Positions 15,082 to 61,051 of a DNA stretch of 64,000 bases are shown here, piece after piece; within the stretch, counting starts at the first letter, position 1, and each line of letters begins with the position of its first letter. The stretch comes from an uncultured Verrucomicrobia subdivision 3 bacterium (GTDB lineage: Bacteria > Verrucomicrobiota > Verrucomicrobiia > Limisphaerales > UBA11358), in contig CAIOIC010000033.1 in the NCBI GenBank assembly GCA_903858275.1, forward strand, positions 3,994-67,993, given 5' to 3'. Made by a program: the position numbers and the translations under genes. Under the pieces are notes generated by a model, which did no database searches, was not told where the DNA came from, and saw only the letters and a program-made list of their open reading frames with translations.

Positions 15082-15406
15082 AGAATTAAATATTTCCAAT
15101 GTTTTTCCCGCGCGCCATTCAACATCACCCTGCTTCCCCGCGGCCACGTGGCCATCGGTGCCGACCGAGTTTAGCCCAACTCCAGACAGATGGCATAGAT
15201 ATATAAGCTTGCTCCATGTTGATTCGGTGCCGTGATTAGAACATTGAAGTCTCAGTTAACGCAAGTGGGAAGGCAAAGGATTGGTTGACAGCACCTTTAT
15301 ATCCGCACCAAACCGCAGGCTTAGCTTTAATGCATTGATAATTCCCATCGATTTTTGGAATCGCTTCCCGCTTGCCAAGATTCCGGAGCTTGCGCATTGT
15401 CGCCGG

Positions 15407-18964: not shown

Positions 18965-19018
18965 AGCCTGGTGATTGAAACCACCACGCCTGATTTTGAC
19001 CTGACCCCGAAGGCAGAA

Positions 19019-22000
19019 TTATTTCCAATGGTATTCCCGCGCGCCATTCAACTTCAACCGCCACCAGTCACCCTGCGTCTGCGGCGTCACCGCAGGAGCG
19101 GAACCCTCCACACAGCGCACACTGGCTGGGCGGCCAAAACGGGATGCGCTCAATTCAACAACAAAATCACCATCGCGCGGCAACGCCCGCAACACCCATT
19201 CGCCGGCTTCGCGGCGCACCAAAAGGCTGCCGTCCGTGCGCACGTCCCCGAAGTCGAGCACCTTACCGGCCAGATTCAACCGATGCTGATATATGTCGTC
19301 ATTCTCGTCCTTAGCCGCCGCCTCGGTTTCGAAAGTGATTTTTTGTCCACCATCGCGGACGTGCAAGGTTCCCAATCGAATGCCATTCTGTCCGTCGTTG
19401 TGTCCCTGCAACACCAGCCTGCCGACCTCCGACAAAAACAATCCGATGCGCACCCCGTAATCACCATCAGACAGAGCTTCGGGCAGGCGGACGGCATGAG
19501 GACCGTCAGTCAATGTTTCGCTGGTCTTCCAAGTTGAAGTGGGACGCGGCAGGCGGTGATCGTTCTGAAAAGAGATGTCTTTGCCGCTGACGAAATGGAC
19601 GAAGCAGTGGTAGTCACGTGACAAGGTTTCGCCGACACGCCATTGGTAGGCGAGCGTGAAGGCCCGGCTGCCGGTTTGCCGGAACCCGGCAACGGTCGGA
19701 AGGATGCGGTGAATCCCGCTCCGATCCCAAACAGCCGCCGCGCGCGCGTTGGCAAAGGTGCTGTCTTGAGTTTGCGCGTAATCAGCAATGACACCCTGAA
19801 GTTGCGCCGTCCAAGCGGTAACCCCGGCCCCCTGCGCCAGCCAGCCAGATTGCGGCAGGATGAAAGCGTTTTCGCGCAAGGCATTCGTGTCGCTGTTAGC
19901 CGTTACCACCAGTCCATTGTCATAACTGACGCGACCGCGATTCCAGATGCCAGCCTTGGCCGCCGTGGTGCTGTCAACCCAACTACCAGCCACCTGATAT
20001 TCAATTTTCACGGGCTGCGCGGCCGCATAGCGGGCGGTGACCGGCGAGAGCAGATGATGTTCCAGCCAGGCCAGCGGCACATTCATGCAGGTGGCGCTGC
20101 CTAGAAAACCGGCGTGGCCATAAATGACTTCCTGCATCCGATATTGATCGAGCACTGCCATCGGCGGCAAGGCACCCCAAGTCGCCTCGCCCCACCAACG
20201 ATCATAGTAGCCCATGCCGTGATTGAATTGCAGCGGATGGATTTTCAGGAGGTCGAAATCCACCATCAAGGGAGCCGTCCGGCCCATTTTTTCAGGCCAG
20301 CCGAAACCAAACTGCGCCTCGACGCCATCGAGCAGTCCGCTCCAAAACCAATGCCGGCAGCCTTCGCCAAAAACGGGGCCGCCATGATTTTTGCGTTCAA
20401 AAGCCCACAATTGCCGGTGCGTTTCCCACACGGGCCTGAAAGTCGCAGCCCCTTCGGCACCCGCCCGATAATCCACATGAAACCAAGGCATCACCGCAGA
20501 ATGCACATCCAGAAAATTCGCGTTGGGCGAATACTGTTTTTGAATCTTCGCGCTCTCACTGCGCGCCAAAGGCAGAATCGCGTGAGGTTGGATGGCAAAC
20601 GATTGAATCTTCGTGCCCTTATTATACCAAGCCTTGATCAGGTTGCCTTTGGAATCCAGCGCCACATCGTTGGTGTCAAAGCCTTCGTAGTTCGGATAAT
20701 AATCCACATAGTTCTCATGCAAAGCGATGTCGTAACCCAGTTTTTTGGCAGTCGAGACCAACTTTATCATGCCAGCTTCACCACCCAGTTTGGGATTGGC
20801 CGGCACATGGGCGGGCAGCGCGTTGTCGTATCCGCTGCGCTGCCAATTATGGATGATGGCGGCACAGTTATTCAGCCCGTAGCTATGCAGCACGGTTAAA
20901 TTGCAGGCGATGTTTTCAAACTGGCCGCCCCAAATGTCCAAAACGATCTTGTTCGCCAAATGATCCCGGAACGGCGAGGGCGGATTCGGGATGTTGGGCA
21001 GGCTTTCCGCGAGATTCCATCCGGCAGCAAATACCACGCGTTCGTGCAGATCCACCCGGGTTCCGTCCGTGCGCGCACCATAGGTGGCGATGGTGTTTTG
21101 ATGAGTGGATGCCGAAGATTTTGTCCAATCGAGAAACGCGTTGACGAACAGGTTTTCCGTTTTGAGATAAAACACCTGACCGGAATAGTAAGGCACCGGC
21201 ACCGGCCGACGGTGCAACACCGGCCCCCAGCCGCCTGCGTTGAACGTGGCAATCTGCGGCGCGTCACAGCTAATCTCCAGCACCAGACTTTTCCCGCTCA
21301 ATTTCGCCAAACTGCGGAGCGTCGCCAGACGCCCGTCCACTTCATAGGTAGAAACACAAGTAACACCATCAGGCGCTGACTCCAAACGGCTGGACTTGAA
21401 TTTCGCCGTCTGCACCCACTCCAGCCGCGCATCGTTTGCCAGCGGAATGGTTTGGGGAATAGTCTCGCCATGCGGAGTTGCCCGCAACTGCCAGATGCCG
21501 AGTGGTGAATCATCAGCGGTAACCGGTCGGGTTAATTCGTATTGCAGCGTTCCATCGGCACCGTTGTAAGTCAGCGTTGCCTTATCTGCTCTGACTTCCG
21601 TCGTCAGCTTGCCTGCAAACCCGGAGGGCGGCGCGACATCTCCGTTTTGCATCGGATAGAGGCGTTGTAAATCCAAGGGAGGCGGCAGTGCGGATTGTGA
21701 CGTCAGTTTGGGGGTGAAACCTTCCAGCAACAGCTCGCGGCCGCCCCACAAGGCAAAATCAAATGAAGCACTATTCCGCGGTCCCGGATCAGTTTCAAAC
21801 CGCAGCGTGAGGTCTTGACCCGCCATAGCGGTAAGGTCAAAAGCAAACGATTTCCATTTCGCTTCAACGCGATTTTCATCCAGCAACGGGCGTCCGTTCG
21901 CAATGATGCGAAAAGTGGCACCATCTGATTTAGGTTTCTCGCCCGGGCCGGCCAGGGCATCGCTCCGCATCGCAGTCATGCCGATGAGTTGGATGCGCTT

Positions 22001-29000: not shown

Positions 29001-29156
29001 ATGAAAACGAAGCTCACACTGTTCCGCCGCAACGGAATTTATTATTCACAAGACTCAACCACCGGCAATACTACATACATGGGGAACGTTGCGACAACAA
29101 CGGAACGGGCGAAACATCCAACCAGCGAACATCACGGCAAGCCCACGGCCCGATAG
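29001..29156 (+). pseudogene. Possible N-terminal remnant of a tyrosine-recombinase/integrase gene
   Basis: Short ORF MKTKLTLFRRNGIYYSQDSTTGNTTYMGNVATTTERAKH..., which resembles integrase N-termini ('...LFRR.NGIYYSQD..TGK') from memory. It is truncated after 51 codons and overlaps the 3' end of the giant minus-strand gene. Confidence 0.3.
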
Positions 29157-32100
29157 AAACGCTGCACGTTTGTCACGGAAGCCAGCAACGTGTGCGGCGA
29201 GAACGGCAACGCCGGGATATCCAACAACGTCTGCCACGAATTGCCCGGCGGAACCGACGGCGCAACTTCGATCTGATAATGCTGCCCAACTGCGCCCTGC
29301 AACTGGAGACTCACATTGCTGCCCGCCAAGTTGATGCTCAACGTGGGGGGCGCGGGATTCCAAACCAAGACGCGCACGAGAGCATCATCCGTAAACCCGG
29401 TCGAATCGGTGACGCGAGCGGAGAAGAGATTACTCCCCGCATCGAGGTTGGAAGGAACACCGGAAAGCGTGCCGCCGGGCGCGACGCTGAGCCAGGCCGG
29501 TCCGCTGAGTTTGGTGAACGCGAGAAACTCATTGGCATTCGTATCGATCACATCACCCGCCAGCGAGGCGGCATACGCGGAACCCGGAATCGCCACCGCT
29601 TTCGTCAAAGGGTCACTCGTAAAGCGCGGCGGCGAGAAACCCGCGAACGGTTGCACGAGATTGGCCGCGCTCATGAGATTGGTTGAACCGAACGGCGCCG
29701 GTCCCTGCCAGGCGACGGCAAGATTATCACCCCCGCCCCCTTCCTTGTGCAGCGTTTCAAGGTAACAGGCCTGCCCCGCCACAAGCGGGATCAAGGCGGA
29801 CTGCTGCGAGGCATATTTTGTCCACTCGCGCGGCGCCGACCAACTTGTCTGATACGCGATGATGGTTTTGTCCGCCGCGTTGCGATTCGGGCTGAACCAA
29901 AGTTCGCCGCCATCGTTCGCCGCGATCCAGAACCGGTAATCACCATTCGCCGGCGCCACGAATTGCGCACGGACGCGCGAGCCGTAGCTGTCCGCGTAAT
30001 TGGTGCGCAGCTCGAACGGGCTATTGGTGTAATACTTGACCGTGGGATTATTCGGAAAATTGGTGTGATCCGTGAGGTCCGTCACAGCTTTACCGCTCCC
30101 GATGTTATTCCAATATTCAACCAACAAGTTACCCGTGGGAACATTGGTGTTCACCACTTCGACAAACACCCTGGCACCACCGCTGCCGCCAACCGTGGAG
30201 GTCACTGAGTAAGTAAAGCTGTCATTGCCGACGTAACCCGCCGATGGCGTGTAATTAACGGAGCCATCACTATTGGCGACCACCGCTCCGTGCGCCGGCT
30301 GCGTGACATCCGCGAGGAGCAGCGGTCCGCCTTCGAGCCGCGAATCGTTGGCCAGCACATCCAGCCGCCGGGCCGCATCGCGAAAGGTCCAGCACGTGTC
30401 GTTCTTCGGCGCCAGCAAGCTGGTGACCACATTGGTCACGACGCCGTTGGTGTTCACCTCCAATTGATACGACTGGCCCTCGACGGAAATGCGCCGGATG
30501 TAACCGCGATCATCCCGCTCCAGATCGGCGAAGTGATTGAACCAGTTCACTGACGTGGGGACGGTGTTGGTCGTTTTGGTCTCGACCAGGTTCACGCGGT
30601 TCATCCCGGCGGAAAGGAAGTCGATGAAAGTCACGACCTCGTTGATGTTCGCCTTCAGCGGACCGAGGCCAGGACCGCTCGCACGCCGGAAGCGATCAGC
30701 GGCGCCAATCAAGCGCCCGAGGCCGTTGGCCCAGTGATGATTGGCCTGCGTCGCCAGCGATTCCTGCGGGGCGCCCATGAACCAATCGATGCCGCCGCGC
30801 ATGAACGACGTATTCCGGAATGGCGCTCCGACGCCCACGGCCCAATGGTTCGACCACGCGGCGTCCCAGGTTGCATTCGTGCCGTCCCAATATCCCTTCG
30901 TGAGAAAATTGGTCTTGGTCAGATTCCAATCCCACCAACCGTTGGTGCCCGCAATGACGTCAGGACCGGCGGCGGTACACAGCGTGAGCCCCCAGCGTTT
31001 GCTTAAATCCGCGTTCGCCCGGGAGTTCACATAACCATCGAGCGAATGCGTCACCTCATGCCCCATGACGAAGGTGAAATAATCGCCGCTCGCGGACCCG
31101 GGCCCGAGAACTTTTTCAATGGCTGTCGTCAAATCCCCGGCCCACTCGTTCGCCAAGCCGACCGCCCAATCGCCAAACGTGTTCTTCGTGCTGTTCGGCG
31201 TCCAGATGAAGCCGCCGCGGCCATCGCCATAAAGCTGGTCGGTTGAAATGATGGCGTCGGGGAACAGTTCGCGCGGGTGACGCCGCTGAAAGTCGCGGAT
31301 GGTGCCGTAGGCGGCGGAAATCGACTTGCCGTTATCGCCGAGCGCAAGGCCCGTCTCGAGGAAGATCGTCCGCATCGTGTTGGTGAGCCCCATCACTTCG
31401 GCGATGTTCGTCCGGCGGGTGGGCGTATCGGCGAGCGCGTATTCGAGCATCACCCAGTTCTGCAAAGCGATGCCGGGGACATGGTGGTAGAAGTTGGTAT
31501 CGAGCGTCTGATATTTCAGGAACGGATATTTCGCGATGTGATTGGTGAGCGCAGTGTAAAGGGCTTCGCGCGTGCCAAGCGTGCCGTTCTGGAGGCGGGA
31601 GACGAGATTCAAGTTCGCGTTGTTGACCACATTGAGCAGGGCGTTGGTGTTGATACTCAAGGCCGGCCCCACGTTGGCGAGGTTCGCATCGTAGATAGCT
31701 TCGATCTCGGCCAGACTATCGCCGACGCTCTTCAGCGTGCCGCGCATGAGGAAGAGATTGCCCGCCGCCCCGCCCTGCCCGCCCATCACCAAGTCCAATT
31801 TTCCATCACCGTCAAAATCACCAAAGTCCGGCACCGGCCCATCGGTGAAACCCTGCAGTCCCGGACTGACACCGGTCGAATCGGTGATGGTGAACGCGCT
31901 TGAATTGCCCAGCCCGCGAGTGCCCGCATCACACCAATAAACAATGTTGCCCCAGTTGATGCCGCGCAGCAGGTCCACCAAGCCGTTGCCGTTCAGATCA
32001 AACAGGCGCGGGTAGAGCTGATACGAACCGGAGAATAAAGTCGTGCCGGTGCTGAACCGCGGATCGGCTGCCGTGCCGCTGTTCAGAAACAACTGCACGT

Positions 32101-33619
32101 TGCCGCTGAAGGTTCCCGTGACCAGATCGGGGCAGCCATCGCCATCCCAGTCACCGACATCAAACCGCCGGTCGGCGAGAATGAAGTCCGTGCCGTTCGT
32201 GTGCTTGACGAAAACGGCAGCGGCATACACCGGCGCGGCATTCGACGCGGCCGTGTTGCGATACACGCGCAACTTATTGGCCGAATCCGACAGCACCAAA
32301 TCCTTCACGCCGTCCCCGGTCATGTCCAACAGTGCGATCGGCGAACTGCCGGTCGAACCGGCGTACACGTCCACGCCCGCCGCCTGCACTTTCACGCCCG
32401 CCGCAAAGGCGGGCATGTTCACCGTGCCGATATTGGTGTAGAGCCACACATAGCCGCCAGCACCGATGAGCAGGTCGAGTTTGCCGTCATTGTTCCAATC
32501 GATCACCCGTGGCACGCGAATGCCACTGAAGGAGATATTCGTGCCGCCCGCCTGAAGCGCGGCAAAATCGGTGAACTGCGTGACCGGCACACCACCACCA
32601 CCCGGCGGTTCGCTCATCACCGTGACATTCATGTTCGCCCGGTGAAAGCCGCCCTGCCCGTCCTCGACCGCCACCGCAAAACCATCGTTGCCGATGAAGC
32701 CGGGGTTGGCGGTGTAATTGAAAGAGCCATCGCCATTGTGTGTGACCGCGCCATGCGACGGCTGGGTCCAACTCCGGACGGAGACGGGGTCCATTTCCAC
32801 ATCGTAAGTGCGGGAGAAAATGCTCTTCGTGCTGAAGGCCCGGTCATTCACCCCCTCGGTGGTGAGATCCCAGCACTTCGGCGCGTGATTGGAGCGCAGC
32901 GTGGCGACCTCGGCCCCGGTGATCACCCGATTGAAAACATAAACCTGATCCAAGCGTCCTTGAAAATACTTCGGACTGACGCCGTTCTCGATCCGGGCGA
33001 GACTGGTGAAAGCCCCGCTGCGCAGACCACTCGCGCCCGTCGCGGTGGCGGACAACACCCCGTCGAGATAAACCTGCCCCACGCCGCTGGCACTATCGCG
33101 CGTCACCACCACATGATGCCATTGGCCGTCGCTAACGGCGCTCGTCGACCGGGCCACGAGCGTGTTGTCCACCGACAATCCGATGCGTCCCGTGTCATCA
33201 ATCCAACCCCACTGCGCGCCGCCCGCCCCCACCACACCGGCAATGCCTGGTGCGGTAGCGGCAGAGACAGCGCCGATCTGCGTGGTGCGCAGCCAGAAGG
33301 AAAGCGAGGCCGTGCCGCCCAAAGTGGACGCGAGGTTTGTCGCGACAAAGAGATGCTCATTCACCCCGTCGAAATCAAGGGCCGTGAACTGCCGGCCGGA
33401 AACCCAGTTCGCACTACCCATATTCTGCAGCGCGGCAGACGCACCGCCGACGCTGTCGACGGCCACAGTATTGGTGCAGACGGATTGAAAGACGGCGTCA
33501 TGCCAGTCGGGGCCCTCATCGAAATTCCAATGGTGAACCAAGCCGCTGGTGACCGCGGCGTTCGTGGCAGCGGCCAAGGCCATGAACAGGGAAAAAGGGA
33601 ACAAGTATCGATGGCGCAT
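29132..33619 (-). CDS. Giant secreted multidomain protein: LamG, Ig-like, FG-GAP/VCBS repeats, HExxH zincin-like region, PA14, He_PIG-like Ig
   Basis: ORF track 29132..33655 (TTG); ATG at 33619 gives MRHRYLFPFSLFMALAAATNA. LamG-like ('LSFWLRT', 'DGQWHHVVVTRD', 'GRLDQVYVFNRV'). FG-GAP ('DWNNDGKLDLLIG', 'DWDGDGCPDLVTG', 'DFDGDGKLDLVMG'). 'VMGHEVTHSLDG' lies at nt 31046-31060. PA14-like ('LLVEYWNNIGSGKAV...YRFWIAANDGGELWFS'). Confidence 0.85.
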   Translation of the reverse strand: MRHRYLFPFSLFMALAAATNAAVTSGLVHHWNFDEGPDWHDAVFQSVCTNTVAVDSVGGASAALQNMGSANWVSGRQFTALDFDGVNEHLFVATNLASTLGGTASLSFWLRTTQIGAVSAATAPGIAGVVGAGGAQWGWIDDTGRIGLSVDNTLVARSTSAVSDGQWHHVVVTRDSASGVGQVYLDGVLSATATGASGLRSGAFTSLARIENGVSPKYFQGRLDQVYVFNRVITGAEVATLRSNHAPKCWDLTTEGVNDRAFSTKSIFSRTYDVEMDPVSVRSWTQPSHGAVTHNGDGSFNYTANPGFIGNDGFAVAVEDGQGGFHRANMNVTVMSEPPGGGGVPVTQFTDFAALQAGGTNISFSGIRVPRVIDWNNDGKLDLLIGAGGYVWLYTNIGTVNMPAFAAGVKVQAAGVDVYAGSTGSSPIALLDMTGDGVKDLVLSDSANKLRVYRNTAASNAAPVYAAAVFVKHTNGTDFILADRRFDVGDWDGDGCPDLVTGTFSGNVQLFLNSGTAADPRFSTGTTLFSGSYQLYPRLFDLNGNGLVDLLRGINWGNIVYWCDAGTRGLGNSSAFTITDSTGVSPGLQGFTDGPVPDFGDFDGDGKLDLVMGGQGGAAGNLFLMRGTLKSVGDSLAEIEAIYDANLANVGPALSINTNALLNVVNNANLNLVSRLQNGTLGTREALYTALTNHIAKYPFLKYQTLDTNFYHHVPGIALQNWVMLEYALADTPTRRTNIAEVMGLTNTMRTIFLETGLALGDNGKSISAAYGTIRDFQRRHPRELFPDAIISTDQLYGDGRGGFIWTPNSTKNTFGDWAVGLANEWAGDLTTAIEKVLGPGSASGDYFTFVMGHEVTHSLDGYVNSRANADLSKRWGLTLCTAAGPDVIAGTNGWWDWNLTKTNFLTKGYWDGTNATWDAAWSNHWAVGVGAPFRNTSFMRGGIDWFMGAPQESLATQANHHWANGLGRLIGAADRFRRASGPGLGPLKANINEVVTFIDFLSAGMNRVNLVETKTTNTVPTSVNWFNHFADLERDDRGYIRRISVEGQSYQLEVNTNGVVTNVVTSLLAPKNDTCWTFRDAARRLDVLANDSRLEGGPLLLADVTQPAHGAVVANSDGSVNYTPSAGYVGNDSFTYSVTSTVGGSGGARVFVEVVNTNVPTGNLLVEYWNNIGSGKAVTDLTDHTNFPNNPTVKYYTNSPFELRTNYADSYGSRVRAQFVAPANGDYRFWIAANDGGELWFSPNRNAADKTIIAYQTSWSAPREWTKYASQQSALIPLVAGQACYLETLHKEGGGGDNLAVAWQGPAPFGSTNLMSAANLVQPFAGFSPPRFTSDPLTKAVAIPGSAYAASLAGDVIDTNANEFLAFTKLSGPAWLSVAPGGTLSGVPSNLDAGSNLFSARVTDSTGFTDDALVRVLVWNPAPPTLSINLAGSNVSLQLQGAVGQHYQIEVAPSVPPGNSWQTLLDIPALPFSPHTLLASVTNVQRFYRAVGLP

Positions 33620-33671
33620 GTTAGGAAAGTCGGTTAATAGAAACAGATTAGTCAAAACTTCACAGTTATAA

Positions 33672-33740
33672 ACTGACAGGAAGCTGCTTTTCCTGCGGGC
33701 TCACATACTGGACGCGGCGCCGGTGATCGATAAATTGATT
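33672..33740 (-). repeat. Conserved upstream element, copy A (short form), 5' of the giant gene
   Basis: Minus strand reads AATCAATTTATCGATCACCGGCGCCGCGTCCAGTATGTGAGCCCGCAGGAAAAGCAGCTTCCTGTCAGTT, which aligns by eye with copies B and C. It overlaps the last ~13 codons and the stop of the 33701..35290 gene. Confidence 0.8.
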
Positions 33741-35290
33741 ACGGCTCTGCCAAGCGTTTCTTTGCCCGGATTAAAAAGGTTAGCCCCATTTATGACAACA
33801 GATTCTTTGGTCCAGGCAGTATAATACATGGCATAATTTCCATCGGGCTGAAGTAGAAAACACAACGGTGTCCGCAAGGTGTGCCACCATTTTCCGGGAT
33901 AGTTCCAAAGATTGGTGTAAGTCACTTTTCCCCAGTGAATTCCATCACAAGACATAAAGACGGATATTCCACGGGGAGTTTTCATGAATCCATAATCACC
34001 GCCATCCGCCAGTGCAATATAGTTTCCATCTTCGAGACGTTGAACTATGGGATTTTCCGTTTGAAGTTCTGACCCTGTTTCGACTGGATTTAATTCGGAA
34101 ACTCTTTTCCAAGGCCCGGTCATACCAGTCACCGATCGTGCCAGTCCAATTCGGATTCCCTTTTTCCCCGGGCTTCCATAAAAAGCATAAAAAGTGTCCC
34201 CATTGACCTGGTAATGGTGCCACGAATTTATTCTGTTGCCTTCCCAGTGATCTGATGGCTGAGGATCTCCGGGTTTTCCCAACTTGATCATCACTTCCGA
34301 ATCCCGGTAGGGTCCCTCAATTCCATCATATCCTGCCAGCAACGAAACCGCACGGACAACCCTTTCGTTGGCATAATAATATAGATTCCACTTTCCTTCT
34401 TTTTCATTGTAGCAGGGCTGGGGACACCATTTTTGAGTCATTGGTTTTAATTTTGCTTTGCCATAGCCATCATCGTAAGGCCAGTAAGGTGCATAAAGTC
34501 TTTTCATCCCCGGGTCGGGTGTGATGGTAGCCACGCGCTCCCATTTTGTTCCTTCCTCACTTTTGTATAAGGCCAGCACCTGTTCGGCACCTGAAAGAAT
34601 ATCGCAATCGGTTATTTCATGAGTTACCATACGGTAGCCATTTTTATATCTGATAACATTTCCCCCTTCGAATCCGCATCTGGCGCCTACACTTTCAAGG
34701 TAAGTTGAGTCGACAAGCGGTTTATTATCAACCGAAACAGTTGTTAAAGTGTAGGTAGATACCGCAAGGCATGAAAAGGCGTCACAAGTAATTCCTGTTC
34801 CTTTGCCCGCAGGATTCCGGGTGCCTTTAACGCTTAATTTCAGCAGATGTTTGCCATCTTTCAAACTATCGGATTCAAAAAGAAGTGCATTAAACATCGT
34901 TTCCGTGCTGAAGCAATCAACAGTACCTTTGGGGACGCCGTCAATAGTTACCTGCATTTCACCCATGTCAACACCCTTACTCCCGAAGCACCTAACTTTG
35001 AAGCCATTAAAAGCAAAGCTTACCTCCGAATTCTTGCTGGTGCTTACACTTTGAGAACCTTTAAAGCATTTCTCGTTTTTATTGGTTATCCATTTTCCAG
35101 TGTAGGAAACAGATGCATCTGAATTGTCATATTTACTCCAAAGCGGCTGGGGTGATGAAGTCTGGCCAAATCCATCTTTGGAAAAAAAGAAAGATGCGCC
35201 TATCAATATTTGCAAGAGGGAAAACAATTTGTGAAAAACTGTTTTCCGGAAGTATACTTCCAGGTATAAAAACTTAGCTGTTTGGTTCAT
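33701..35290 (-). CDS. Secreted CBM-like plus beta-propeller-like (GH43/GH32-clan-like) protein, A+T-rich gene
   Basis: 529-aa ORF with signal-like 'LFSLLQILIGASFFFS'. The N-terminal lectin/CBM-like module ('VSFAFNGFKVRCFGSKG..MQVTIDG...LKLSVKG') is followed by propeller-like repeats. Composition is visibly A+T-richer than the neighbours. Confidence 0.65.
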   Translation of the reverse strand: MNQTAKFLYLEVYFRKTVFHKLFSLLQILIGASFFFSKDGFGQTSSPQPLWSKYDNSDASVSYTGKWITNKNEKCFKGSQSVSTSKNSEVSFAFNGFKVRCFGSKGVDMGEMQVTIDGVPKGTVDCFSTETMFNALLFESDSLKDGKHLLKLSVKGTRNPAGKGTGITCDAFSCLAVSTYTLTTVSVDNKPLVDSTYLESVGARCGFEGGNVIRYKNGYRMVTHEITDCDILSGAEQVLALYKSEEGTKWERVATITPDPGMKRLYAPYWPYDDGYGKAKLKPMTQKWCPQPCYNEKEGKWNLYYYANERVVRAVSLLAGYDGIEGPYRDSEVMIKLGKPGDPQPSDHWEGNRINSWHHYQVNGDTFYAFYGSPGKKGIRIGLARSVTGMTGPWKRVSELNPVETGSELQTENPIVQRLEDGNYIALADGGDYGFMKTPRGISVFMSCDGIHWGKVTYTNLWNYPGKWWHTLRTPLCFLLQPDGNYAMYYTAWTKESVVINGANLFNPGKETLGRAVINLSITGAASSM

Positions 35291-35310
35291 AATCTTTCCC
35301 GTTTAATTTA

Positions 35311-35464
35311 ACTGATAGGAAATTGTTTTTCATGCGGGCTCATATACCGGACGCGGCGCGGGTGAGGGGAAATTGATTTTTGCTTTTTTTATCATCAAGC
35401 CGACGTGCCAATCCAAGCGGGGGCGGGAAAATAAAAGCTGAAAGGCTGAGACTTGAGACCTGAA
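35311..35464 (-). repeat. Conserved upstream element, copy B (long form), 5' of the 33701..35290 gene
   Basis: Near-identical by eye to copy C over about 105 nt (GGCACGTCGGCTTGATGATAAAAAAAGCAAAAATCAATTTCCCCTCACCCGCGCCGCGTCCGGTATATGAGCCCGCATGAAAAACAATTTCC on the minus strand), plus a distal GCTGAAAGGCTGAGACTTGAGACCTGAA block. Confidence 0.85.
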
Positions 35465-35524
35465 TCGACCGGATGGCGGGCGGCATAGGGAACATTCAAC
35501 ATCCAACATTCAAAAACTTACCCA

Positions 35525-37900
35525 TCACCGCAATTCAATCACCTTCACGTCTTCAGCACCCAGCGTCAAGGTGGTCGCACGATTTTTCCATTCGATGATC
35601 GCGCCCGAGATGAGTTCGCGCCCCGGCGCGGGCGGCGCCTCCTCGAGGGTCAGGGTGGCGGTGCGCGGCCCGGCGCTGTCGTTGAACACGGTCAGATATT
35701 TTTCGCCGAAACGTTCGACGCGAATTTTTTTATCGCCGGTCTTCGCGCGCGTGACGGGTTCCCAGCCAGCCTCGGCGACAAGCTGGCAGAGCGGGACATA
35801 TTTTTTGAACAAATCCCGGTCGCGCTCATAGAACTCGGGTCGCGTGAAATACGCGCCGCTGGAGGCATCTGCGCTGAAGAAGCCGGGGAACATGCCGAAG
35901 GCGAGGGAGCGGCGCATATATTTTTCGACGTGCTCGTGCGTGAACCTGCCGAAGTCGGTGTTCATCAGGAAGCAGTAGGGTTTGCCGCGGCAGAGCGCGC
36001 GGCGGTAAAGGAGTTCGTCGGCACCCATCGGACGCCACTGGCCGCCGCGGTTCCAGTCGGTCTCGGTGCCGAGCACGTCGAACTGCGGCGCGAGCCAGCA
36101 GAGGCTGCCGGGGGTCGAGTTGGCCATCATCAGTTTGCCCATGCCATGCGTGTCGCGGGCGAGCGCGCGGACATACTCGAAGGCCATCAGCCCGCGGAAC
36201 AGCGCCGGCTGGTGCGAACCCGGCGAGAACGTCAGCGGCGTCTGCGCGACAGCAAAGTGGTCGCGACGGAAATTCAGCACGTCGGTCACATAGCATTCGG
36301 CCGAGTCCACATACTCGCCATCGAGGTCGCCCTTGCGCGCCGCGCCGTAGAGCTGCTCCCGCTGCCGCGCGCCCCACTTCTGCGTGAAATCGGTGACCTC
36401 GCCCGCGACGCCCGGCATCGAATTCATGCTCCACACAGCGCCATCGCACCACGGCGTATCGAGCAGCCGCGCGGGCGCGCGGCCGGACTCGTCGCGAAAG
36501 CCGCTCGCGAGGAACGCGCGCGCCGCCGGGTTACCTTGCGCCGCAAGCCGCTCCGCCTCGGCCTGGGCGGCGTCGAGCGTGCGCGGCTTATCCCCGGGCA
36601 TCTTCATCCACCACGTCATCGGCTCGGTGTAGCGGAAGGTCAGGATGTCGTGCGCGTCGTCCCACATCGTCTCGTCGTTGCCTTCCTTGAAACGGAAGCC
36701 GAAATCCTCCCACCGGGCCACCTTGCTGATCTTCGCGAATGGCATCCACAAGCCCTGCCGAGCCACGCGGCGTTGGAACTGGCCGGGGAAAAGTTCGTAG
36801 AACCGCGCCAGCGCCGACCGGAATTCCCAGGCAGGGTCGAACGCGAAGGTGCAGAAGCGCAGCTGCGCGGCCGGCTGCTCCGGCGTCAGGCCGAGATCGA
36901 ACGCGAGGAACAGCTCGTGCGTGCCGGCGTTGTAGCCCGCGCGGAAGAACGCTGGTTGTTCCATATCAATGCCGAGCGCCGTGCCCCGCCGGCCGTCGCT
37001 AATCGCGGCGAACGGCCAGCGCGAGAGCCGCCCCATGCCGGCGGGTGTGCCGTGGGTCACCATGTATTCGCGGCCCAGCACCGTCGTTTCGCCCTGGTCC
37101 GGCCCCGCGAGCCAGCGCCAGCCTTCGCCGGAAATCGGCACGGAATAAATCAGCGTCACCGCGCGATCTTTGCCCGTCAGGTTGCGCAGCGTCGCCTCGA
37201 TGAATCCGCCCCGCCGCCGGGTTTCGAGCGTCAACCCGAGCGCCTCGCGGTCGAGGCGGACGAAATCGGAACCGGCGGCGACGTCGCGAACCTGAAAACC
37301 CGCGGCCGGCGCAATTTTCACCATCACCGGCACGCCATCGAATACGCACGCGCCGGCGGGCGCCTCGACGGTGCGCAGCCCAGCGGCCCGGAATTCCGCA
37401 CGCCCGCCGTGGCCGCGCAGCAGGAGATAAAACGAAATCGACTTCACCGGCTTCTCCGGCAGCACGATCACCTCGCGCCGCTGCCAGTCGTGCGTGCCAA
37501 CGTCGAAGTCGGCGGTCTGGCCCCAGAGCTGCGAACCATCGGCATAAACGAGATCGAGGTAGAGGGCGTAGTTGCTATCGCGCCCGCCGGTGACGCCGAC
37601 CGCGCGGCTCCACGCCGAGGCGATGATCGGCTGCGGCGCGGTCTGATTCAGCGTGATGCGCTGCACCACACCGCGTTTCGCCTTCGCATCGCCGGCGTTG
37701 TCGCAGACCCAGACGCCGGCACGGGTTTCAAACCCGCTTTCATAAGCGCGCCAGGCGGAAGCGCTGATCAAATCCGCCACGCCCGTCCGCGCCGCGAGCG
37801 CCGCCTTGACGACCTCGGCGCGGGCGGAAGCCAGCGACAACAACAAGGCGGCAATAAATCCAAGATGGATTTTCATTACTGATGGGAATTTGTTTTTCAT
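35525..37900 (-). CDS. Large secreted protein of unknown function
   Basis: 791-aa ORF. The ATG at 37900 lies inside repeat copy C, and an alternative ATG at 37876 gives MKIHLGFIAALLLSLASARA (signal-like). No motif I can name. The 650-aa plus-strand ORF opposite is a G+C-rich shadow. Confidence 0.7.
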   Translation of the reverse strand: MKNKFPSVMKIHLGFIAALLLSLASARAEVVKAALAARTGVADLISASAWRAYESGFETRAGVWVCDNAGDAKAKRGVVQRITLNQTAPQPIIASAWSRAVGVTGGRDSNYALYLDLVYADGSQLWGQTADFDVGTHDWQRREVIVLPEKPVKSISFYLLLRGHGGRAEFRAAGLRTVEAPAGACVFDGVPVMVKIAPAAGFQVRDVAAGSDFVRLDREALGLTLETRRRGGFIEATLRNLTGKDRAVTLIYSVPISGEGWRWLAGPDQGETTVLGREYMVTHGTPAGMGRLSRWPFAAISDGRRGTALGIDMEQPAFFRAGYNAGTHELFLAFDLGLTPEQPAAQLRFCTFAFDPAWEFRSALARFYELFPGQFQRRVARQGLWMPFAKISKVARWEDFGFRFKEGNDETMWDDAHDILTFRYTEPMTWWMKMPGDKPRTLDAAQAEAERLAAQGNPAARAFLASGFRDESGRAPARLLDTPWCDGAVWSMNSMPGVAGEVTDFTQKWGARQREQLYGAARKGDLDGEYVDSAECYVTDVLNFRRDHFAVAQTPLTFSPGSHQPALFRGLMAFEYVRALARDTHGMGKLMMANSTPGSLCWLAPQFDVLGTETDWNRGGQWRPMGADELLYRRALCRGKPYCFLMNTDFGRFTHEHVEKYMRRSLAFGMFPGFFSADASSGAYFTRPEFYERDRDLFKKYVPLCQLVAEAGWEPVTRAKTGDKKIRVERFGEKYLTVFNDSAGPRTATLTLEEAPPAPGRELISGAIIEWKNRATTLTLGAEDVKVIELR

Positions 37901-37984
37901 GCGGGCTCATATACTAGACGCTGCGCGGGTGAGGGGAAATTGATTTTTGCCTTTTTTATCACCAAGCCAACGTGCCAACACGGG
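37878..37984 (-). repeat. Conserved upstream element, copy C (proximal part; the distal part is at 38924..38951 beyond the IS)
   Basis: Aligns with copy B. The GCTGAAACGCTGAGACTTGAGACCTGAA block that follows directly in copy B is found at 38924-38951 on the other side of the IS630-like insertion. Confidence 0.8.
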
Positions 37985-37998
37985 TAGCAGCTATCAAC

Positions 37999-38905
37999 TA
38001 TAGCATTTCATATTGACATTGGGACATAGGCTGCTAAAGTAGGCGGCATGAAAGCCCATGCGTTGGACTTGCGGGAACGGATCGTGAAATTCATCCAGAG
38101 CGGCGGTTCCAAGGCTGAAGCCGCCCGGCGGTTTGACCTCGCCCGGAGTTCGGTTTACCGGTATCTGGCGGCCGCCAAAAAAGGAGCGCTACCGCCAAAA
38201 ACCAGCTGGGGAACTTGGCGCAAACTCGATCCCGAGAAACTCCGCGCCCATGTCAAGAAACACCCGGATGCCACCCTCAAGGAAATCCAACAGGTGTTCG
38301 GCGTCAGCCATCACGCCGTTTGGGTGCGGCTGGGGCAACTGGGCTTCACGCTAAAAAAAACTCATAAAATATCGCGAGCGCAACGAGGTGCAGCGGTGGC
38401 TCTTCCGCCGCGAGCTGGAACAACTCGCCGGCCGGCCCGTCTTCTATCTCGACGAATGCGGCGTGGATCACCGCCTGTATCGTGAATTTGGTCGCGCGCC
38501 TAAAGGGGAGCGGATATACGAGGCGGTAGCGGGCAAGCGGCGGGAGCGCACCAGCATTATCTCGGCTTCGCAGCAGGGCAAGCTGATCGCGCCGCTGGTC
38601 TTTCAAGGCAGTTGCAACACCGAGGTGGTGGACGCCTATTTTGAACAGGTGTTGCTGCCCGAACTGCCGCCCGGCAGTGTGATCGTGTTGGACAACGCCC
38701 GGTTCCACCAGTCGCCCACAACCCAGCGGCTGGTCCAAGCCGCCGGTTGCCAGATGTTCTTCTTACCAGCCTATTCCCCCGACCTCAACCCCATCGAGCA
38801 TCTCTGGGCTGCGTTCAAGACCCGACTTCGTAAAGACCTGGCCAGCTCCAGCAACCCCTTCCTTTTTATCGCCAATATGTCCCAATGTTATTGTTAATTA
38901 CTATA
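37999..38905 (+). mobile_element. IS630/Tc1-mariner family insertion sequence (ISY100-like size)
   Basis: Imperfect ~31-bp terminal inverted repeats: left TATAGCATTTCATATTGACATTGGGACATA, reverse complement of right TATAGTAATTAACAATAACATTGGGACATA. TA is present at both junctions (boundaries +/-3 bp). It encodes an HTH plus DD34E transposase. Confidence 0.85.
38048..38897 (+). CDS. IS630-family transposase in two frames joined at an A8 run (38353-38360)
   Basis: Frame 1 is 38048..~38360 (HTH; '...LGFTLKK'). Frame 2 is open from 38355 ('LIKYRERNEVQRWLF...YLDECG...VLDNARFH...SPDLNPIE'; 34 residues lie between the second D and E). Fusion needs a +1 shift or loss of one A, so this is either programmed slippage or an inactivating frameshift. 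Confidence 0.8.
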
Positions 38906-39061
38906 GAGGTTTTGAGGGAGAATGCTGAAACGCTGAGACTTGAGACCTGAAAAAAGCATGGAGCGAGGAGCCAAGGAAAGAGGGCGGTAGGCAGTTGGCA
39001 AAGGTCAGGCCTCGCGGCCTTCAACATCTAGTTGGCAGTAGGCGGTGGACATGACGCGGCG

Positions 39062-42000
39062 CTAGCTTCCCGCGAGCGCAGGCACGAGTTGAGGCTGGTC
39101 GTCCGCCTTGTGGAATTTCACGCTGACGATCTTGCTCACGCCATGCTCCTGCATCGTCACGCCGTAGAGCACATCGGCCATGCCGATGGTGCGCTTGTTG
39201 TGCGTGATGATGACGAATTGCGAATGCGCGAGGAAGCGCTGCAAAATCTTCACGAAGCGGCTCACATTGGCTTCGTCCAGCGGCGCGTCCAATTCGTCCA
39301 GCACGCAGAACGGGCTGGGCTTGACCTGATAGATGGAGAACAGCAGCGAGACGGCAACCATCGTCTGCTCCCCGCCGGACAGCAGCGAGATGCTCTGCAA
39401 CTGCTTGCCGGGCGGGCGGGCGACGATCTCAATGCCGCTTTCCAGCACGTCGTTTTCATCGGACAAAATCAAGTCCGCCTTGCCGCCACCAAACACGTCC
39501 ACAAACATGAGACGGAAATTGTCGCGGATCTTCTCGAACGTCTCGATGAACATCTGGCGCGTCTGCGTGTTGATGCGGTTGATGATCTCCAGCAACTGAA
39601 TCTTGGCATTCACCAAATCATCGTGCTGCGTGGAAAGGAACTGGTGGCGCTGCTCGGTCTCCTCGTATTCCTCGATGGCCACCAGATTGACCGGCCCCAT
39701 CTCGTCAATCTTCTGCTGCAAAACTTCCACCTGCTGCTGCACCGCATTCCAATCGGTGGCGGCCCCCGCCTCGGCCATTTGCTCCGGCGTCAAGGTCTCC
39801 ACCTTCGGCTGGCCTTCGTCGGCATGGGTGATGGTGATGCATTCGCTGCGGATGTCCTCGAGGTTGAGGTGATATTTCTGCTGCACCTTCTCGCGCAGGT
39901 TCTGGACGCTCATGTTCTTCTGCGCCAGCTCCACGTCAAGCGCGCCGCGCTGAGCCTGCATTTCCGTCAGGCGGCTGCGCTGGGAACGCAAGGCCTCGTC
40001 GCGACCGGAAATCTCCCCTTCCTGCGCATTCTTCAGAGCGATGGTCTCGGCCGTCTGCGCGCTGACCTGCTCGCGCTCGTGCTGCAGCTTTTCAATCTTC
40101 GCCTGCGAATCCTGAATCTCGGTTTCCGCCTGCTCCTTGCGGGAGACAAAGGAGGAACATTCATTGCGGCGCGCCTCAACCAACTGGCTCAATTCGCCCA
40201 ACCGCAAGCCGAGCGTCGTTTTCTGCTGGCGGAACGATGATGCCAACTGTTCATCCGATGCGAGCGCCACCTTGCTCTCGGACAAGGCCGCCAGCGCGGC
40301 ATCGCGGGCGATGCGCAACTCTTCCAACTGCGCCGTCAGCGCCACGACCTGCTCCTGCGCGGTGCGTTCGCGGGCTTCGAGCTCATTCAAACGCACGGAG
40401 AGCGCCTCGCGCTTCTGCAGGCCTTCCTGCTCCTGCGCGGCGAGGCTTTCCACCTCGAACATGACGGTCTCCACCTTCTGATTGAGCAGGCGGCCGGAAT
40501 TGGTGAGCGCATTGAACTCGCCTTCGCGCGTGGCAATGGCGACTTCCTGCTGGCGCAATTCGGTCTGGGCCTGCTGCAGGCTGGCCTGCAACTCGGTCTG
40601 CTCGCTCAAGAGCGCGCCGCGCTTGCGGCTGGCTTCGGCGACGCGTTCCTGCAACTCGTTCAACTCCGCCTGCAATTCCGTGATTTGATTCTTGCGGCCG
40701 AGAATGGACGAGGGCGCCTTGCCGTTGTTGCCTTTGTTCAGATAACCGCCCGTGTAGATGCCATGGCGATTGAGCAGGTCGCCACCGAGCGTCACAAAGT
40801 CACAGCCAGCGTGACCGTTCTGGATCTGCGCCGTCGCGGTGTTCAAATCCGCCGCGATGAAGGTGCGACCCAGCAACGATTTCAGGAGCGGCTCCACATT
40901 CGGCTCGGCATGAATCACGCTCATCGCGTGAACGATCTGGCCGGTTTGCAAACCATGCTGCGCGGCTTCGCTCTTTTCGCCCGGAGCCATTTCGCCGGCA
41001 AAGGCGAGCTGCTTTTCATCCTGATATTGCTGGATGGCCAAGGCCGCAACACTCGCGCGACCGGACTTGTTCGTGTTCAATTCCGCAAGAATTTCCTGCG
41101 CGGAGGACGTCTGTTCCGTCAGCACGATCTGGAGATTGTGGCCCAGCGCATTTTCCACCGCGGTCACAAACTGGTCCGGAACGCGGATGCGATCCGCGAG
41201 CGAGCCAATGACCGAGCGAGATTGGCGCAGGGCCGCGACCGCGCCCGCGTCAAAGCCCTCGTGCGAGCCTTCGAGCTGTTCGAGGACGTGCAACCGAGAC
41301 CGCTTCTCGGCCTGCTGCTGCAAGAATTTATCCTGCTCCTGCGACGAGGCGTGCAGTTCGCCCTGCAACTCGCGGAGGCGGTTCTGCCGCTGCTCCACCG
41401 AGCCGCGCGTGGTGGCGACATTCAGCTTTTCGAGTTCCACGCTGGCGGTAAATTCCTGCAAGCGCGATTCGAGGCGGACGCGCTCCTCTTCGAGCTGAAC
41501 CTTCTCGGCGGAAAGTTTTTCCAAGCGAACCAGATTGCCCTGCTTGGCCAGGTCCAGCGCCGTGAGCTCATTGCGCACGCGGGATAGATCCTGGGCGGCG
41601 GCGAACGCCGTGGACTGTGCCTGCCGCAAGGTTTCCTGCTGCTGGCGCAGGCTTTCCTCCACTTCGCGGAGGGAATTCTGCCTGGCCTGCAAGGCTTCCT
41701 TGTGCTGCGTCAACGCGGCTTCGGCGGCCGCCAGCTTTTCCGTGACGATGGCGACTTCTTCCTGCGCGGCGCGATGGCGCTCCTCGGCCTGGGCAATTTC
41801 CTCGAGCGCCTTCAGGTTCTGCGACTCGATCTCGTGGACGCGCTCCTGATTGAAATGGATGCGGCTCTCGTGGCGCTCAGCTTCGCCTTTCAATTCCAGC
41901 CCGCGCTGCTGCTGCGCGGCGACTTCATGCTCCAGTTCCATGAGCCGTTCGCGCAGCCTGGAAATTTCATTTTCAAAGCGCAGGATGTCGTTCGAACCGG

Positions 42001-59651: not shown

Positions 59652-59784
59652 AAAAGGGTCTGCCTATTCTGGTTCTTCAACGGACACAGGGCAAAGCTAA
59701 ATGCGAATGGTATTTGGTTTTCAATATCCCGGAAATGGCGGACGGGGGACGGAGGCGTTTTAATTGTTAAAACCGGAGAAAATC

Positions 59785-60021
59785 GTGGCGCTATTTTCAA
59801 AATAGCGCTACGGGAAGAAAGAATCCTGACTAGGAAACGAACATTTCTGATGAGCGGACGAAGATTTTCTGGAGCTATTTCTGAAATAGCTCCACGGAAA
59901 ATGATTTTTTCAGTCAGCGGACAAACAAATCGTGGCGCTATTTTGGAAATAGCACCAAGAAAAATGATTTCACTGACTAGGAAAACCACAATCCTTGGCG
60001 CTAATTTGAAAATAGCGCCAC
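59785..60021. repeat. Tandem array of four 27-nt palindromic (hairpin) units, spacing 84/63/63 nt
   Basis: The units are at 59785-59811, 59869-59895, 59932-59958 and 59995-60021 (GGCGCTATTT-nn-AAATAGCGCC core). The inter-unit segments are also related to each other. Confidence 0.85.
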
Positions 60022-60297: not shown

Positions 60298-61026
60298 TCA
60301 CTTAAGCGACTGAACTTCCGCGCGATTATAAATAGCATTCGTGTAATGGGGATTTATTTCAATTGCCTTCGAGTAATCAGCCATAGCATCGTCATAATAT
60401 TTTAGACCACGTTTCGCTGTGCCACGATTATTGTATGCTTCAGCATAATGAGGGTTTACTTCAATGGCCTTATTACAGTCAAAAATAGCGCCGTTAAAAT
60501 CGTTGATATTGTTTTTTGCAGCGGCTCGACTGTTGTAAGCTTTGTCATATCGAGGGTTGATTTCGATGGCTTTGTCAAAATCCGCGATGGCTCTGGTGTA
60601 ATTATTTAACCGATACTTTGTATTACCACGATTCAAATAGGCTGCCGAATCGTGTGGATTAAGTTCAACAGCTCTGTCGTAATCTAAAACGGCTTTAGCA
60701 AAATCCTGAAGATGCGCTTCAGCATTTCCCCGATTGTAATAACCAAATTGATATTGTGGATTCAGTTTAATGGCTTTGGTGTAGTCAGCGATAGCTCCGT
60801 CCTCATCTTTGATAGCGTCTTTAGCCATGCCGCGATTGTTGTATGCCTTGATGTAATTCGGATCGATTAGGATGGCCTTATCATATTCGGCTATGGCACC
60901 GACGAAGTCACCAGAAGCATATTTGTTACAGCCTGCGTTAAAGAATTTCTTGGCGGATGGTTTTGAACATGAAGAGCAAGCAGCGACCAATAAAATCAGA
61001 ATGAATTTATTTAGCGAAGCCTTCAT
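60298..61026 (-). CDS. TPR-repeat lipoprotein, A+T-rich gene
   Basis: ORF track 60298..61044; ATG at 61026 gives MKASLNKFILILLVAAC (lipobox-like). It is followed by about six tandem 34-aa TPR units ('AIADYTKAIKLNPQY...'). Confidence 0.8.
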   Translation of the reverse strand: MKASLNKFILILLVAACSSCSKPSAKKFFNAGCNKYASGDFVGAIAEYDKAILIDPNYIKAYNNRGMAKDAIKDEDGAIADYTKAIKLNPQYQFGYYNRGNAEAHLQDFAKAVLDYDRAVELNPHDSAAYLNRGNTKYRLNNYTRAIADFDKAIEINPRYDKAYNSRAAAKNNINDFNGAIFDCNKAIEVNPHYAEAYNNRGTAKRGLKYYDDAMADYSKAIEINPHYTNAIYNRAEVQSLK

Positions 61027-61051
61027 GCAACCTGAAAATCCCACATTGTTC

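Follow-up and report, generated by a model that had tools for sequence, protein, structure and literature searches.

A dispersed 56-nt repeat ahead of unrelated secreted-protein genes in Verrucomicrobia subdivision 3: a possible portable gene head

Introduction

Three consecutive minus-strand genes for secreted proteins in an uncultured Verrucomicrobia subdivision 3 bacterium are each preceded by the same 56-nt sequence, TCACCCGCGCAGCGTCCAGTATaTGAGCCCGCAtGAAAAGCAATTTCCtATCAGT. They lie in a 64-kb stretch of contig CAIOIC010000033.1 (assembly GCA_903858275.1), hereafter the window, to whose positions all coordinates refer. This core is a member of a previously undescribed repeat family, about 31 non-redundant copies of which were found on contigs resembling Verrucomicrobia subdivision 3, in unrelated flanks. 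Tentatively, we favor the reading that the three copies represent a lineage-specific dispersed repeat, a copied 5′ leader and start-codon module of the kind called "putative mobile promoter." In the same guarded sense we regard it as a gene head, in preference to a structured RNA or a conserved promoter of the classical type. The portable gene head would be a non-palindromic, unstructured DNA module of 56 nt that, in its usual sense orientation, makes up the final stretch of the 5′ leader before the downstream gene. Its ATG could act as a start codon, to be followed by the first eight codons of a signal peptide (MK[S/N]NFLSV). The module would be copied or recombined before unrelated genes, mostly encoding a secreted carbohydrate-active enzyme or adhesin and often horizontally acquired, and would later drift; recombination between copies may account for its spread. 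It would drive or enable expression through a leader that is unstructured, A-rich and free of a Shine–Dalgarno (SD) sequence, while a long form of about 190 nt, seen in two of the window copies, probably carries a promoter and a regulator site.

If the module truly supplies expression signals, uncultured polysaccharide-degrading Verrucomicrobia would be able to fit horizontally acquired enzyme genes directly into an expression context already in place, and in some genes the donation would extend to the start codon and the first part of the signal peptide. For practical use, the repeat could mark recently shuffled genes in metagenome-assembled genomes (MAGs) of this group.

Three Copies of a 56-nt Core

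The core was located by formal alignment and by a repeat search of the whole window. The three copies, designated A, B and C, are all on the minus strand (Table 1), and B and C are 86 and 80% identical to A, respectively. A 24-nt degenerate core pattern, allowing three mismatches or fewer, matches at A, B and C only in the 64 kb and gives no match in 100 shuffles of the window; none of the three copies is expected by chance. The preliminary description of this DNA had placed one shared element before the three genes, and the alignment confirms it. It had also called B and C nearly identical over more than 100 nt with a further distal match, which is equally so: identity is 92% across 101 nt (35311–35411 versus 37878–37978) and 94% in a distal block of 31 nt (35434–35464 versus 38921–38951).

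Upstream of the core, B and C have in common an extension of about 130 nt. In C it is interrupted by an IS630-family insertion sequence (IS) of about 0.9 kb, bracketed by CTATAG repeats at 37998–38003 and 38901–38906, and this insertion is what separates the two parts into which copy C had earlier been split (37878–37984 and 38924–38951). The IS has a run of A8/T8 at its frame change and a strong sigma-70-like promoter of its own at 38013–38040.

B and C are a recent duplicate of the long form of about 190 nt, and A is a core-only copy. Copy A had been reported as a shorter and more diverged version of the extended element. Its AATCAATTT, counted at the time as part of the extension, lies within the C-terminal codons ..GRAVINLSI.. 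of the 529-aa gene. This motif is conserved in 529-aa homologues from other contexts (52–89% identity), including one, in L019, that has no element. Since element-free homologues share the motif, AATCAATTT is not independent evidence of an extension, and because it belongs to a conserved coding end, A is taken as core only. The 9-mer match at A is either a coincidence or a microhomology used in joining the gene to the core. The differing use of the internal ATG among the copies was described correctly: it is in frame in C, where the core ends at the second ATG (37876) of the 783-aa gene; in B it opens a short out-of-frame open reading frame (ORF) that overlaps the start of the 529-aa gene; and in A it reads AGG.

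Table 1. Positions of the repeat copies and adjoining features in the window.
Feature	Position	Strand	Remarks
Copy A, core only	33671..33726	-	51 nt upstream of the giant-gene ATG (33619); internal ATG changed to AGG
Copy A, 5′ third	within 33671..33726	-	read as last codons and TGA stop of the 529-aa gene
Copy B, core	35310..35365	-	19 nt before ATG (35290) of the 529-aa gene
Copy B, proximal extension, long form	35366..35414	-	GGATTGGCACGTCGGCTTGATGATAAAAAAAGCAAAAATCAATTTCCCC; A-tract and second GAAAA.CAATTTCC motif
Copy B, distal block, long form	35434..35464	-	TTCAGGTCTCAAGTCTCAGCCTTTCAGC; TCAGC-type direct repeats
Copy C, core	37877..37932	-	internal ATG 37900, in frame, 8 codons upstream of ATG 37876
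Copy C, proximal extension, long form	37933..37981	-	92% identity to that of B
IS630-family insertion sequence	37998..38906	+	HTH_Tnp_IS630 and DDE_3, two overlapping frames; splits copy C long form
Copy C, distal block, long form	38921..38951	-	94% identity to that of B; ~110 nt after the SMC gene stop
Giant secreted protein gene	29132..33619	-	Laminin_G_3, FG-GAP, Big_9, cadherin-like domains
529-aa gene, GH43-related	33701..35290	-	44.2% GC; bounded exactly by cores B and A
783/791-aa conserved hypothetical secreted protein gene	35525..37900	-	66.3% GC

A Repeat Family in Uncultured Verrucomicrobia

An exact scan of one genome per species returned three genuine matches, all in MAGs named "Verrucomicrobia subdivision 3," and one chance coding match, while a metagenome scan returned eleven contigs, several of them with two or three exact matches. 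With an nhmmer profile made from these matches, more diverged copies came to light (seven in L014, three each in L013 and L007, two each in L011 and L010), and five further ones are present in L020, a contig chosen for its 88%-identical homologue of the 783-aa protein. Pattern matches in L001, L006 and L009 were discarded as chance matches in coding sequence. The figure of about 31 is the count after duplicate assemblies were removed. The hosts are a group of uncultured lake and soil Verrucomicrobia. No core copies were found in viral contigs by two pattern scans or in plasmids by a search, and literature searches for a Verrucomicrobia upstream motif or repeat brought up nothing specific.

When the copies are aligned together with their flanks, information content is nearly uniform over TCACCCGCGCAGCGTCCAGTAtaTGAGCCCGCAtGAAAAGCAATTTCCtATCAGT and falls abruptly to zero on both sides. 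A uniform core with sharp edges points to copied DNA rather than to a promoter, from which two short boxes would be expected. Neither can the copies be explained by paralogous gene duplication, in which similarity would continue into the gene instead of ending at the core; the giant, 529-aa and 783-aa proteins are of unrelated families, and their similarity stops at the core edge. The preliminary description had singled out a −10-like GTATAT and a CGTC recalling the −10 regions of extracytoplasmic function (ECF) sigma factors. Only the latter has held up: CGTC is kept in most copies, whereas GTATAT is replaced by GTAAAT, GCAAAT or GCGAAT in diverged family members. Truncated and internally deleted copies also exist. 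Some 25 nt beyond each of two 3′-degenerate copies from different genomes (L002 ~3935–3965 and L014 ~2400–2446), the same terminator-like hairpin, CCGAACCGGTCGGTTTTG, occurs; such an arrangement could give a short transcript or be the remnant of an emptied unit.

Placement and Use of the Start Codon

The core lies in the sense orientation in 21 of 28 classifiable copies, 0–234 nt upstream of an ORF on the same strand, and in half of the sense copies considered (10/20) it ends at most 6 nt from the start codon or in frame. The proteins encoded downstream are mostly secreted carbohydrate-active enzymes (WbsX-like, DUF2961, GH30-like, GH10, heparinase-like and beta-helix). One downstream gene instead encodes a cytoplasmic Cys/Met pyridoxal phosphate-dependent enzyme, and seven copies are antisense or convergent. 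It had been said that copies oriented at random relative to genes would mark a generic dispersed repeat. This applies in part, to these 7 of the 31 copies. Among them, in L014, the opposite-strand genes are supported by Pfam (GH39-like, rhamnosidase, beta-helix and apiosidase-like), and the core abuts or overlaps their stop codons.

The ATG of the core is the sole possible start of a signal peptide in at least two genes, at L011 6141 (MKCNFLSVSLAVLALS..) and L020 2692 (MKNNLLSVIKLGARVFLLL..), and is in frame with a second ATG in window copy C and at L013 7103. Judged by these reading frames, it is a real start codon in some genes. It has been lost from 14 of the 28 classifiable copies; it is intact in 14/21 sense copies versus 0/7 antisense or convergent ones (Fisher p = 0.006), a comparison in which the copies are not independent because five of the seven share one contig.

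How would translation begin on such a leader? An SD-like motif is almost absent within 30 nt upstream of called starts when all gene starts of L016, L017 and L020 are considered, and the clade appears to initiate translation without SD sequences. In an organism essentially devoid of SD motifs, an unstructured A-rich leader would be a plausible initiation context. The same observation led us to drop the lack of an SD sequence as an argument about the element itself, since it is general in the organism.

The element is a source of start-codon mis-annotation (783 versus 791 aa; 1483 versus 1495 aa). The 783-aa gene has been called at both 783 and 791 aa, the longer version starting at the ATG of the element (37876–37900). 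Gene callers likewise differ on the giant protein (1483 versus 1495 aa), and the public call of 1483 aa truncates a predicted signal peptide beginning MRHRYLFPFSLF at 33619 (33583–33619).

Promoter Signals, RNA Structure and Leader Peptides

Does the repeat bring a promoter with it? The long form, found in B, C and L011 6141, has TCAGC-type direct repeats in its distal block; a spacer of variable length (26–60 nt) leads to the proximal block, which contains TGGCACG, an A-tract and another GAAAAGCAATTTCC located 51 nt from the core's own copy. Two species share these upstream blocks in conserved form. In several further sense copies, the only such features are the A-tract and, 17 nt upstream of CGTC, a (G/C)CAATT motif. 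The arrangement (G/C)CAATT-N17-CGTC, in which CGTC is the conserved part, occurs in only about six long or medium copies and in these is compatible with a candidate ECF-type promoter; on such motifs, promoter activity is plausible for the long form only. A sigma-54 promoter was considered and rejected: in place of GG-N10-GC (TGGCAC-N5-TTGC), TTGGCACGTYGRCTTG reads GG-N10-TG in all three long copies, with the −24 half present but the GC at −12 missing.

The preliminary description had offered two interpretations, a shared promoter with a 5′ leader and a small mobile promoter cassette. From the former, the leader is retained, as copies lie in sense before starts and their ATG is used, but uniform conservation without a sigma-70 or sigma-54 match does not suit a promoter. 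From the latter, portability is retained, the core standing before unrelated genes in several genomes.

A more conventional explanation is a non-mobile cis-regulatory region kept similar by selection as one regulon, whether an ECF-type (G/C)CAATT-N17-CGTC promoter, a sigma-54-like TGGCACG with an upstream activator site or a long operator. The conservation of CGTC in most copies is in its favor, as are the (G/C)CAAT(T/C) 17 nt upstream of it in long and medium copies, the TGGCACG and distal TCAGC direct repeats conserved in two species, and the occurrence of GAAAAGCAATTTCC twice, 51 nt apart. However, 56 contiguous conserved positions with sharp edges do not resemble promoter boxes, core-only copies have no −35 candidate, the spacing and the −12 GC of sigma-54 promoters are not matched, antisense copies exist, and orthologues of the giant and 783-aa genes in relatives have no element. 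No ECF sigma gene is found in the 64-kb window, and six other carbohydrate-active enzyme genes of the window are without the element. Given that these further genes for secreted carbohydrate-active enzymes do without it, the element is no general signal of a regulon in the window. We regard this explanation as improbable.

Position in the 5′ leader would also fit a structured cis-regulatory RNA (riboswitch or attenuator) or a conserved leader peptide controlling the downstream gene, and some short ORFs that open at the core ATG close on the main start codon, as ATGA or TAATG (L008, L007 1793 and L012). Both are largely refuted, and we give them hardly any credence. An Rfam scan of the whole window at gathering thresholds and an E-value scan of 33400–39100 yielded nothing relevant. 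Single-sequence folds of four copies and of one reverse complement did not surpass those of shuffles, whichever strand was folded (z-scores −1.3 to +1.1); the consensus fold of 28 copies amounted to −1.6 kcal/mol without covariation, and an explicit hairpin test of the palindrome GGAAA-N5-TTTCC detected no covariation either. These results speak against a structured RNA, and the leader fold proposed earlier as a check has turned out negative. As for peptides, the MSPHEKQFPIS and MKSNFLSV frames were both rejected as conserved peptides: substitutions hit the first and second positions of codons, a stop interrupts the longer frame in copy C, and half of the copies have no ATG. Coupling through an upstream ORF was rejected as well, as ATGA and TAATG overlaps are not significant, being expected for genes that begin with ATGAAA.

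Genes Between Cores and the Cassette Question

The strictest rule of the repeat is co-orientation: in seven multi-copy contigs, all 25 copies point the same way as the others of their contig, also where the genes are encoded on the opposite strand. In either orientation the core adjoins ORF starts and stops closely, and units between two cores are found in L007, L010 and L011. In the window, the genes flanked by the repeat are of foreign composition: except for one AT-rich TPR gene, the 783-aa gene and the 529-aa gene are the compositional extremes in a window of 56.6% GC. Homologues of the 529-aa protein carry GH43-type domains, and the 783-aa family is widespread in the Planctomycetes–Verrucomicrobia–Chlamydiae (PVC) group. 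An SMC gene lies upstream of copy C. The window is otherwise ordinary chromosome, with genes for SMC, NusA, IF2, RpoD and GltX and several for carbohydrate-active enzymes.

These features raise the question of whether the core is a recombination site bounding gene cassettes, functionally like the Vibrio cholerae repeats of the super-integron. Circular or incoming DNA with one core would integrate at a resident core by means of a dedicated recombinase or of RecA acting on the 56-nt homology; the gene would then stand between direct repeats, and co-oriented arrays would be built up. Strict co-orientation, two-core units, tight junctions and a 44% GC gene fitting exactly between cores B and A beside a neighbor of 66% are what such a mechanism could produce. 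Nevertheless, no integrase or recombinase was found among the ORFs of the 64-kb window except the IS630 transposase, and the core has neither an attC-like hairpin nor a GTTRRRY core site. Cassette polymorphism is also missing: the order SMC–IS–783–529–giant is identical in all six places examined from independent assemblies, so that nothing is visibly moving now. Finally, a synteny search with homologues of the 529-aa, 783-aa and giant proteins encountered differing neighborhoods and no clean, cassette-free "empty site." A role as a cassette boundary is unlikely on balance. Less likely again is its more specific version, in which the core would be the sequence-defined attachment site of an undescribed Verrucomicrobia cassette system where foreign genes for secreted carbohydrate-active enzymes or adhesins are inserted, excised and shuffled. 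At such a site, which we would put at a rather low probability, the incoming gene would obtain a leader and a start codon, and the system would be a functional analogue of the super-integron that dispenses with attC folding. If the cassette explanation were true, it would amount to a new gene-capture platform outside Proteobacteria.

Some other observations on the window may be recorded here. Strains of the window organism carry different genes immediately after the giant gene (L016 16900–21590 versus L017 14860–19858): in one these are CBS, HTH and RCC1/Ig genes, and the other shares with the window a set of GDSL lipase, polysaccharide lyase and TPR-cytochrome genes. At 59780–60020, next to a TPR-repeat gene of 41% GC (60300–61030, minus strand), a gene-free stretch contains GTGGCGCTATTTTCAAAATAGCGCTAC and its variants, four hairpin repeats of about 27 nt at intervals of 63–84 nt. 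A 43-nt stretch is shared at 88% identity by 15088–15130 and 19017–19059 (minus strand, GGTGA.GTTGAATGGCGCGCGGGAA.A.CATTGGAAATA.TT); a beta-helix gene starts close to one of them and a DUF5696 gene ends at the other, with no similarity beyond the 43 nt.

Evolution of the Copies

In L020, the gene for the 88%-identical homologue of the 783-aa protein sits in a different neighborhood, and a core (8942–9000) ends 2 nt before its ATG. As the junction recurs although the surroundings differ, the core and this gene travel together. The closest match of the L020 8942 core is its orthologous copy. Distant 783-aa homologues (L022, L023 and L028) have no element, nor do orthologues of the giant gene in other Limisphaerales (L024–L027, 71–73% identity); the element is thus restricted to a smaller clade, and these genes did not have it ancestrally. 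About 190 nt upstream of the element-free homologue in L028 (75% identity), a sigma-54-like TGGCAC-N5-TTGG is present at ~9800–9830. Arrays differ in age: copies are 99% identical to one another in L007 and 98% in L010, which are young, and 62% in L020 and 72% in L014, which are decayed. Concerted evolution within genomes was considered and rejected, identity being 0.74 within contigs versus 0.78 between contigs (permutation p = 0.96).

Several facts weigh against a portable gene head. Conservation is even across the core rather than box-like. Core-only copies are without any candidate −35 region, and a consensus scan for sigma-70-like sites (TTGACA-16/18-TATAAT-like) found none in any copy, the only strong one being in the IS. 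The octapeptide encoded by the core is not conserved at the amino-acid level. Seven copies, five of them from one contig, are antisense or convergent to the flanking genes. In the orthologous pair (window C and L020 8942), the cores are 77% identical compared with 82% at fourfold sites of the adjacent gene, which means that no purifying selection on the core is visible there.

Is the repeat then simply a selfish or neutral miniature mobile element, inserted strand-specifically into small gaps between genes (single-stranded DNA at a replication fork being one conceivable target), whose use as a leader or start is an occasional exaptation? Its sharp edges and uniform conservation, the young near-identical arrays (L007 and L010) beside old decayed ones (L020 and L014), the roughly neutral divergence at the orthologous position, the truncated and internally deleted copies, and the occurrence of both orientations relative to genes under strict co-orientation per contig would all suit such an element. 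On the other hand, the copies have no terminal inverted repeats, target-site duplication, subterminal hairpins or consistent target sequence, no cognate transposase was seen, and the window organism has only 3 copies in about 85 kb. The ATG, moreover, is retained in sense copies only. GC skew could not relate the direction of the copies to the replication strand, its values being small and of mixed sign on short contigs. We hold this explanation to be doubtful, and the portable gene head remains our tentative preference.

Comparison with Known Systems

Correia elements of Neisseria, 100–155 bp long, bear terminal inverted repeats, duplicate a TA target and contain an IHF site. The present repeat resembles them as a small dispersed intergenic repeat, Correia elements being able to supply promoters and to overlap ORF ends, but it differs from them in size and has no terminal inverted repeats, TA duplication or IHF site. 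It does not look like a miniature inverted-repeat transposable element either: its ends, TCACCC.. and ..ATCAGT, are not complementary, and the flanks of 28 copies show no duplication.

The attC sites of integrons are imperfect palindromes recognized as folded single strands, with a GTTRRRY core, and are found next to intI. Like the Vibrio cholerae repeats and attC sites of chromosomal integrons, the present repeat forms co-oriented arrays (25/25 copies in 7 multi-copy contigs) between unrelated genes of mixed composition, makes tight junctions with ORFs and can contribute translation signals. In contrast to attC, the core has no palindrome and no GTTRRRY, neither of its strands folds better than shuffles do, and the 64 kb encodes no integrase, there being no tyrosine recombinase among the ORFs of the window.

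The upstream homology box of the Borrelia erp/ospEF-related genes is plasmid-borne and longer, and its promoter activity is experimentally known. There, too, a promoter, leader and signal-peptide start have become common to unrelated surface-protein genes through recombination. The present repeat differs from it in these three properties, and antisense arrays have not been reported for the Borrelia box.

Repetitive extragenic palindromic (REP) sequences and the bacterial interspersed mosaic elements formed with them include CGTC-tagged REPs (PMC3733652). Short extragenic repeats between genes and a CGTC tetranucleotide are common to them and the present repeat. REPs are palindromes of 20–40 bp with the tag (GTAG or CGTC) at one end, whereas in the present repeat CGTC is internal and no palindrome exists, which does not agree with a REP or a repeat associated with a REP-associated tyrosine transposase (RAYT).

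The closest likeness is to putative mobile promoters (PMPs), a class defined by upstream regions of non-homologous genes that match at 80% identity or more across 50 nt or more (Matus-Garcia, Nijveen & van Passel 2012; PMC3575422). PMPs are non-coding, occur within one genome, are shared between related species and have no Rfam match; the term denotes an operational class, not a mechanism (PMC3575422). The present repeat goes further than PMPs in that it reaches into the coding start (ATG and eight codons), and it differs also in occurring in antisense and in being strictly co-oriented per contig. In common with PMPs, it is a similar sequence before non-homologous genes, with 92% identity over 101 nt between B and C and 86% over 56 nt between A and B, ending at the core edge ahead of unrelated proteins, lacking an Rfam match and common to related species.

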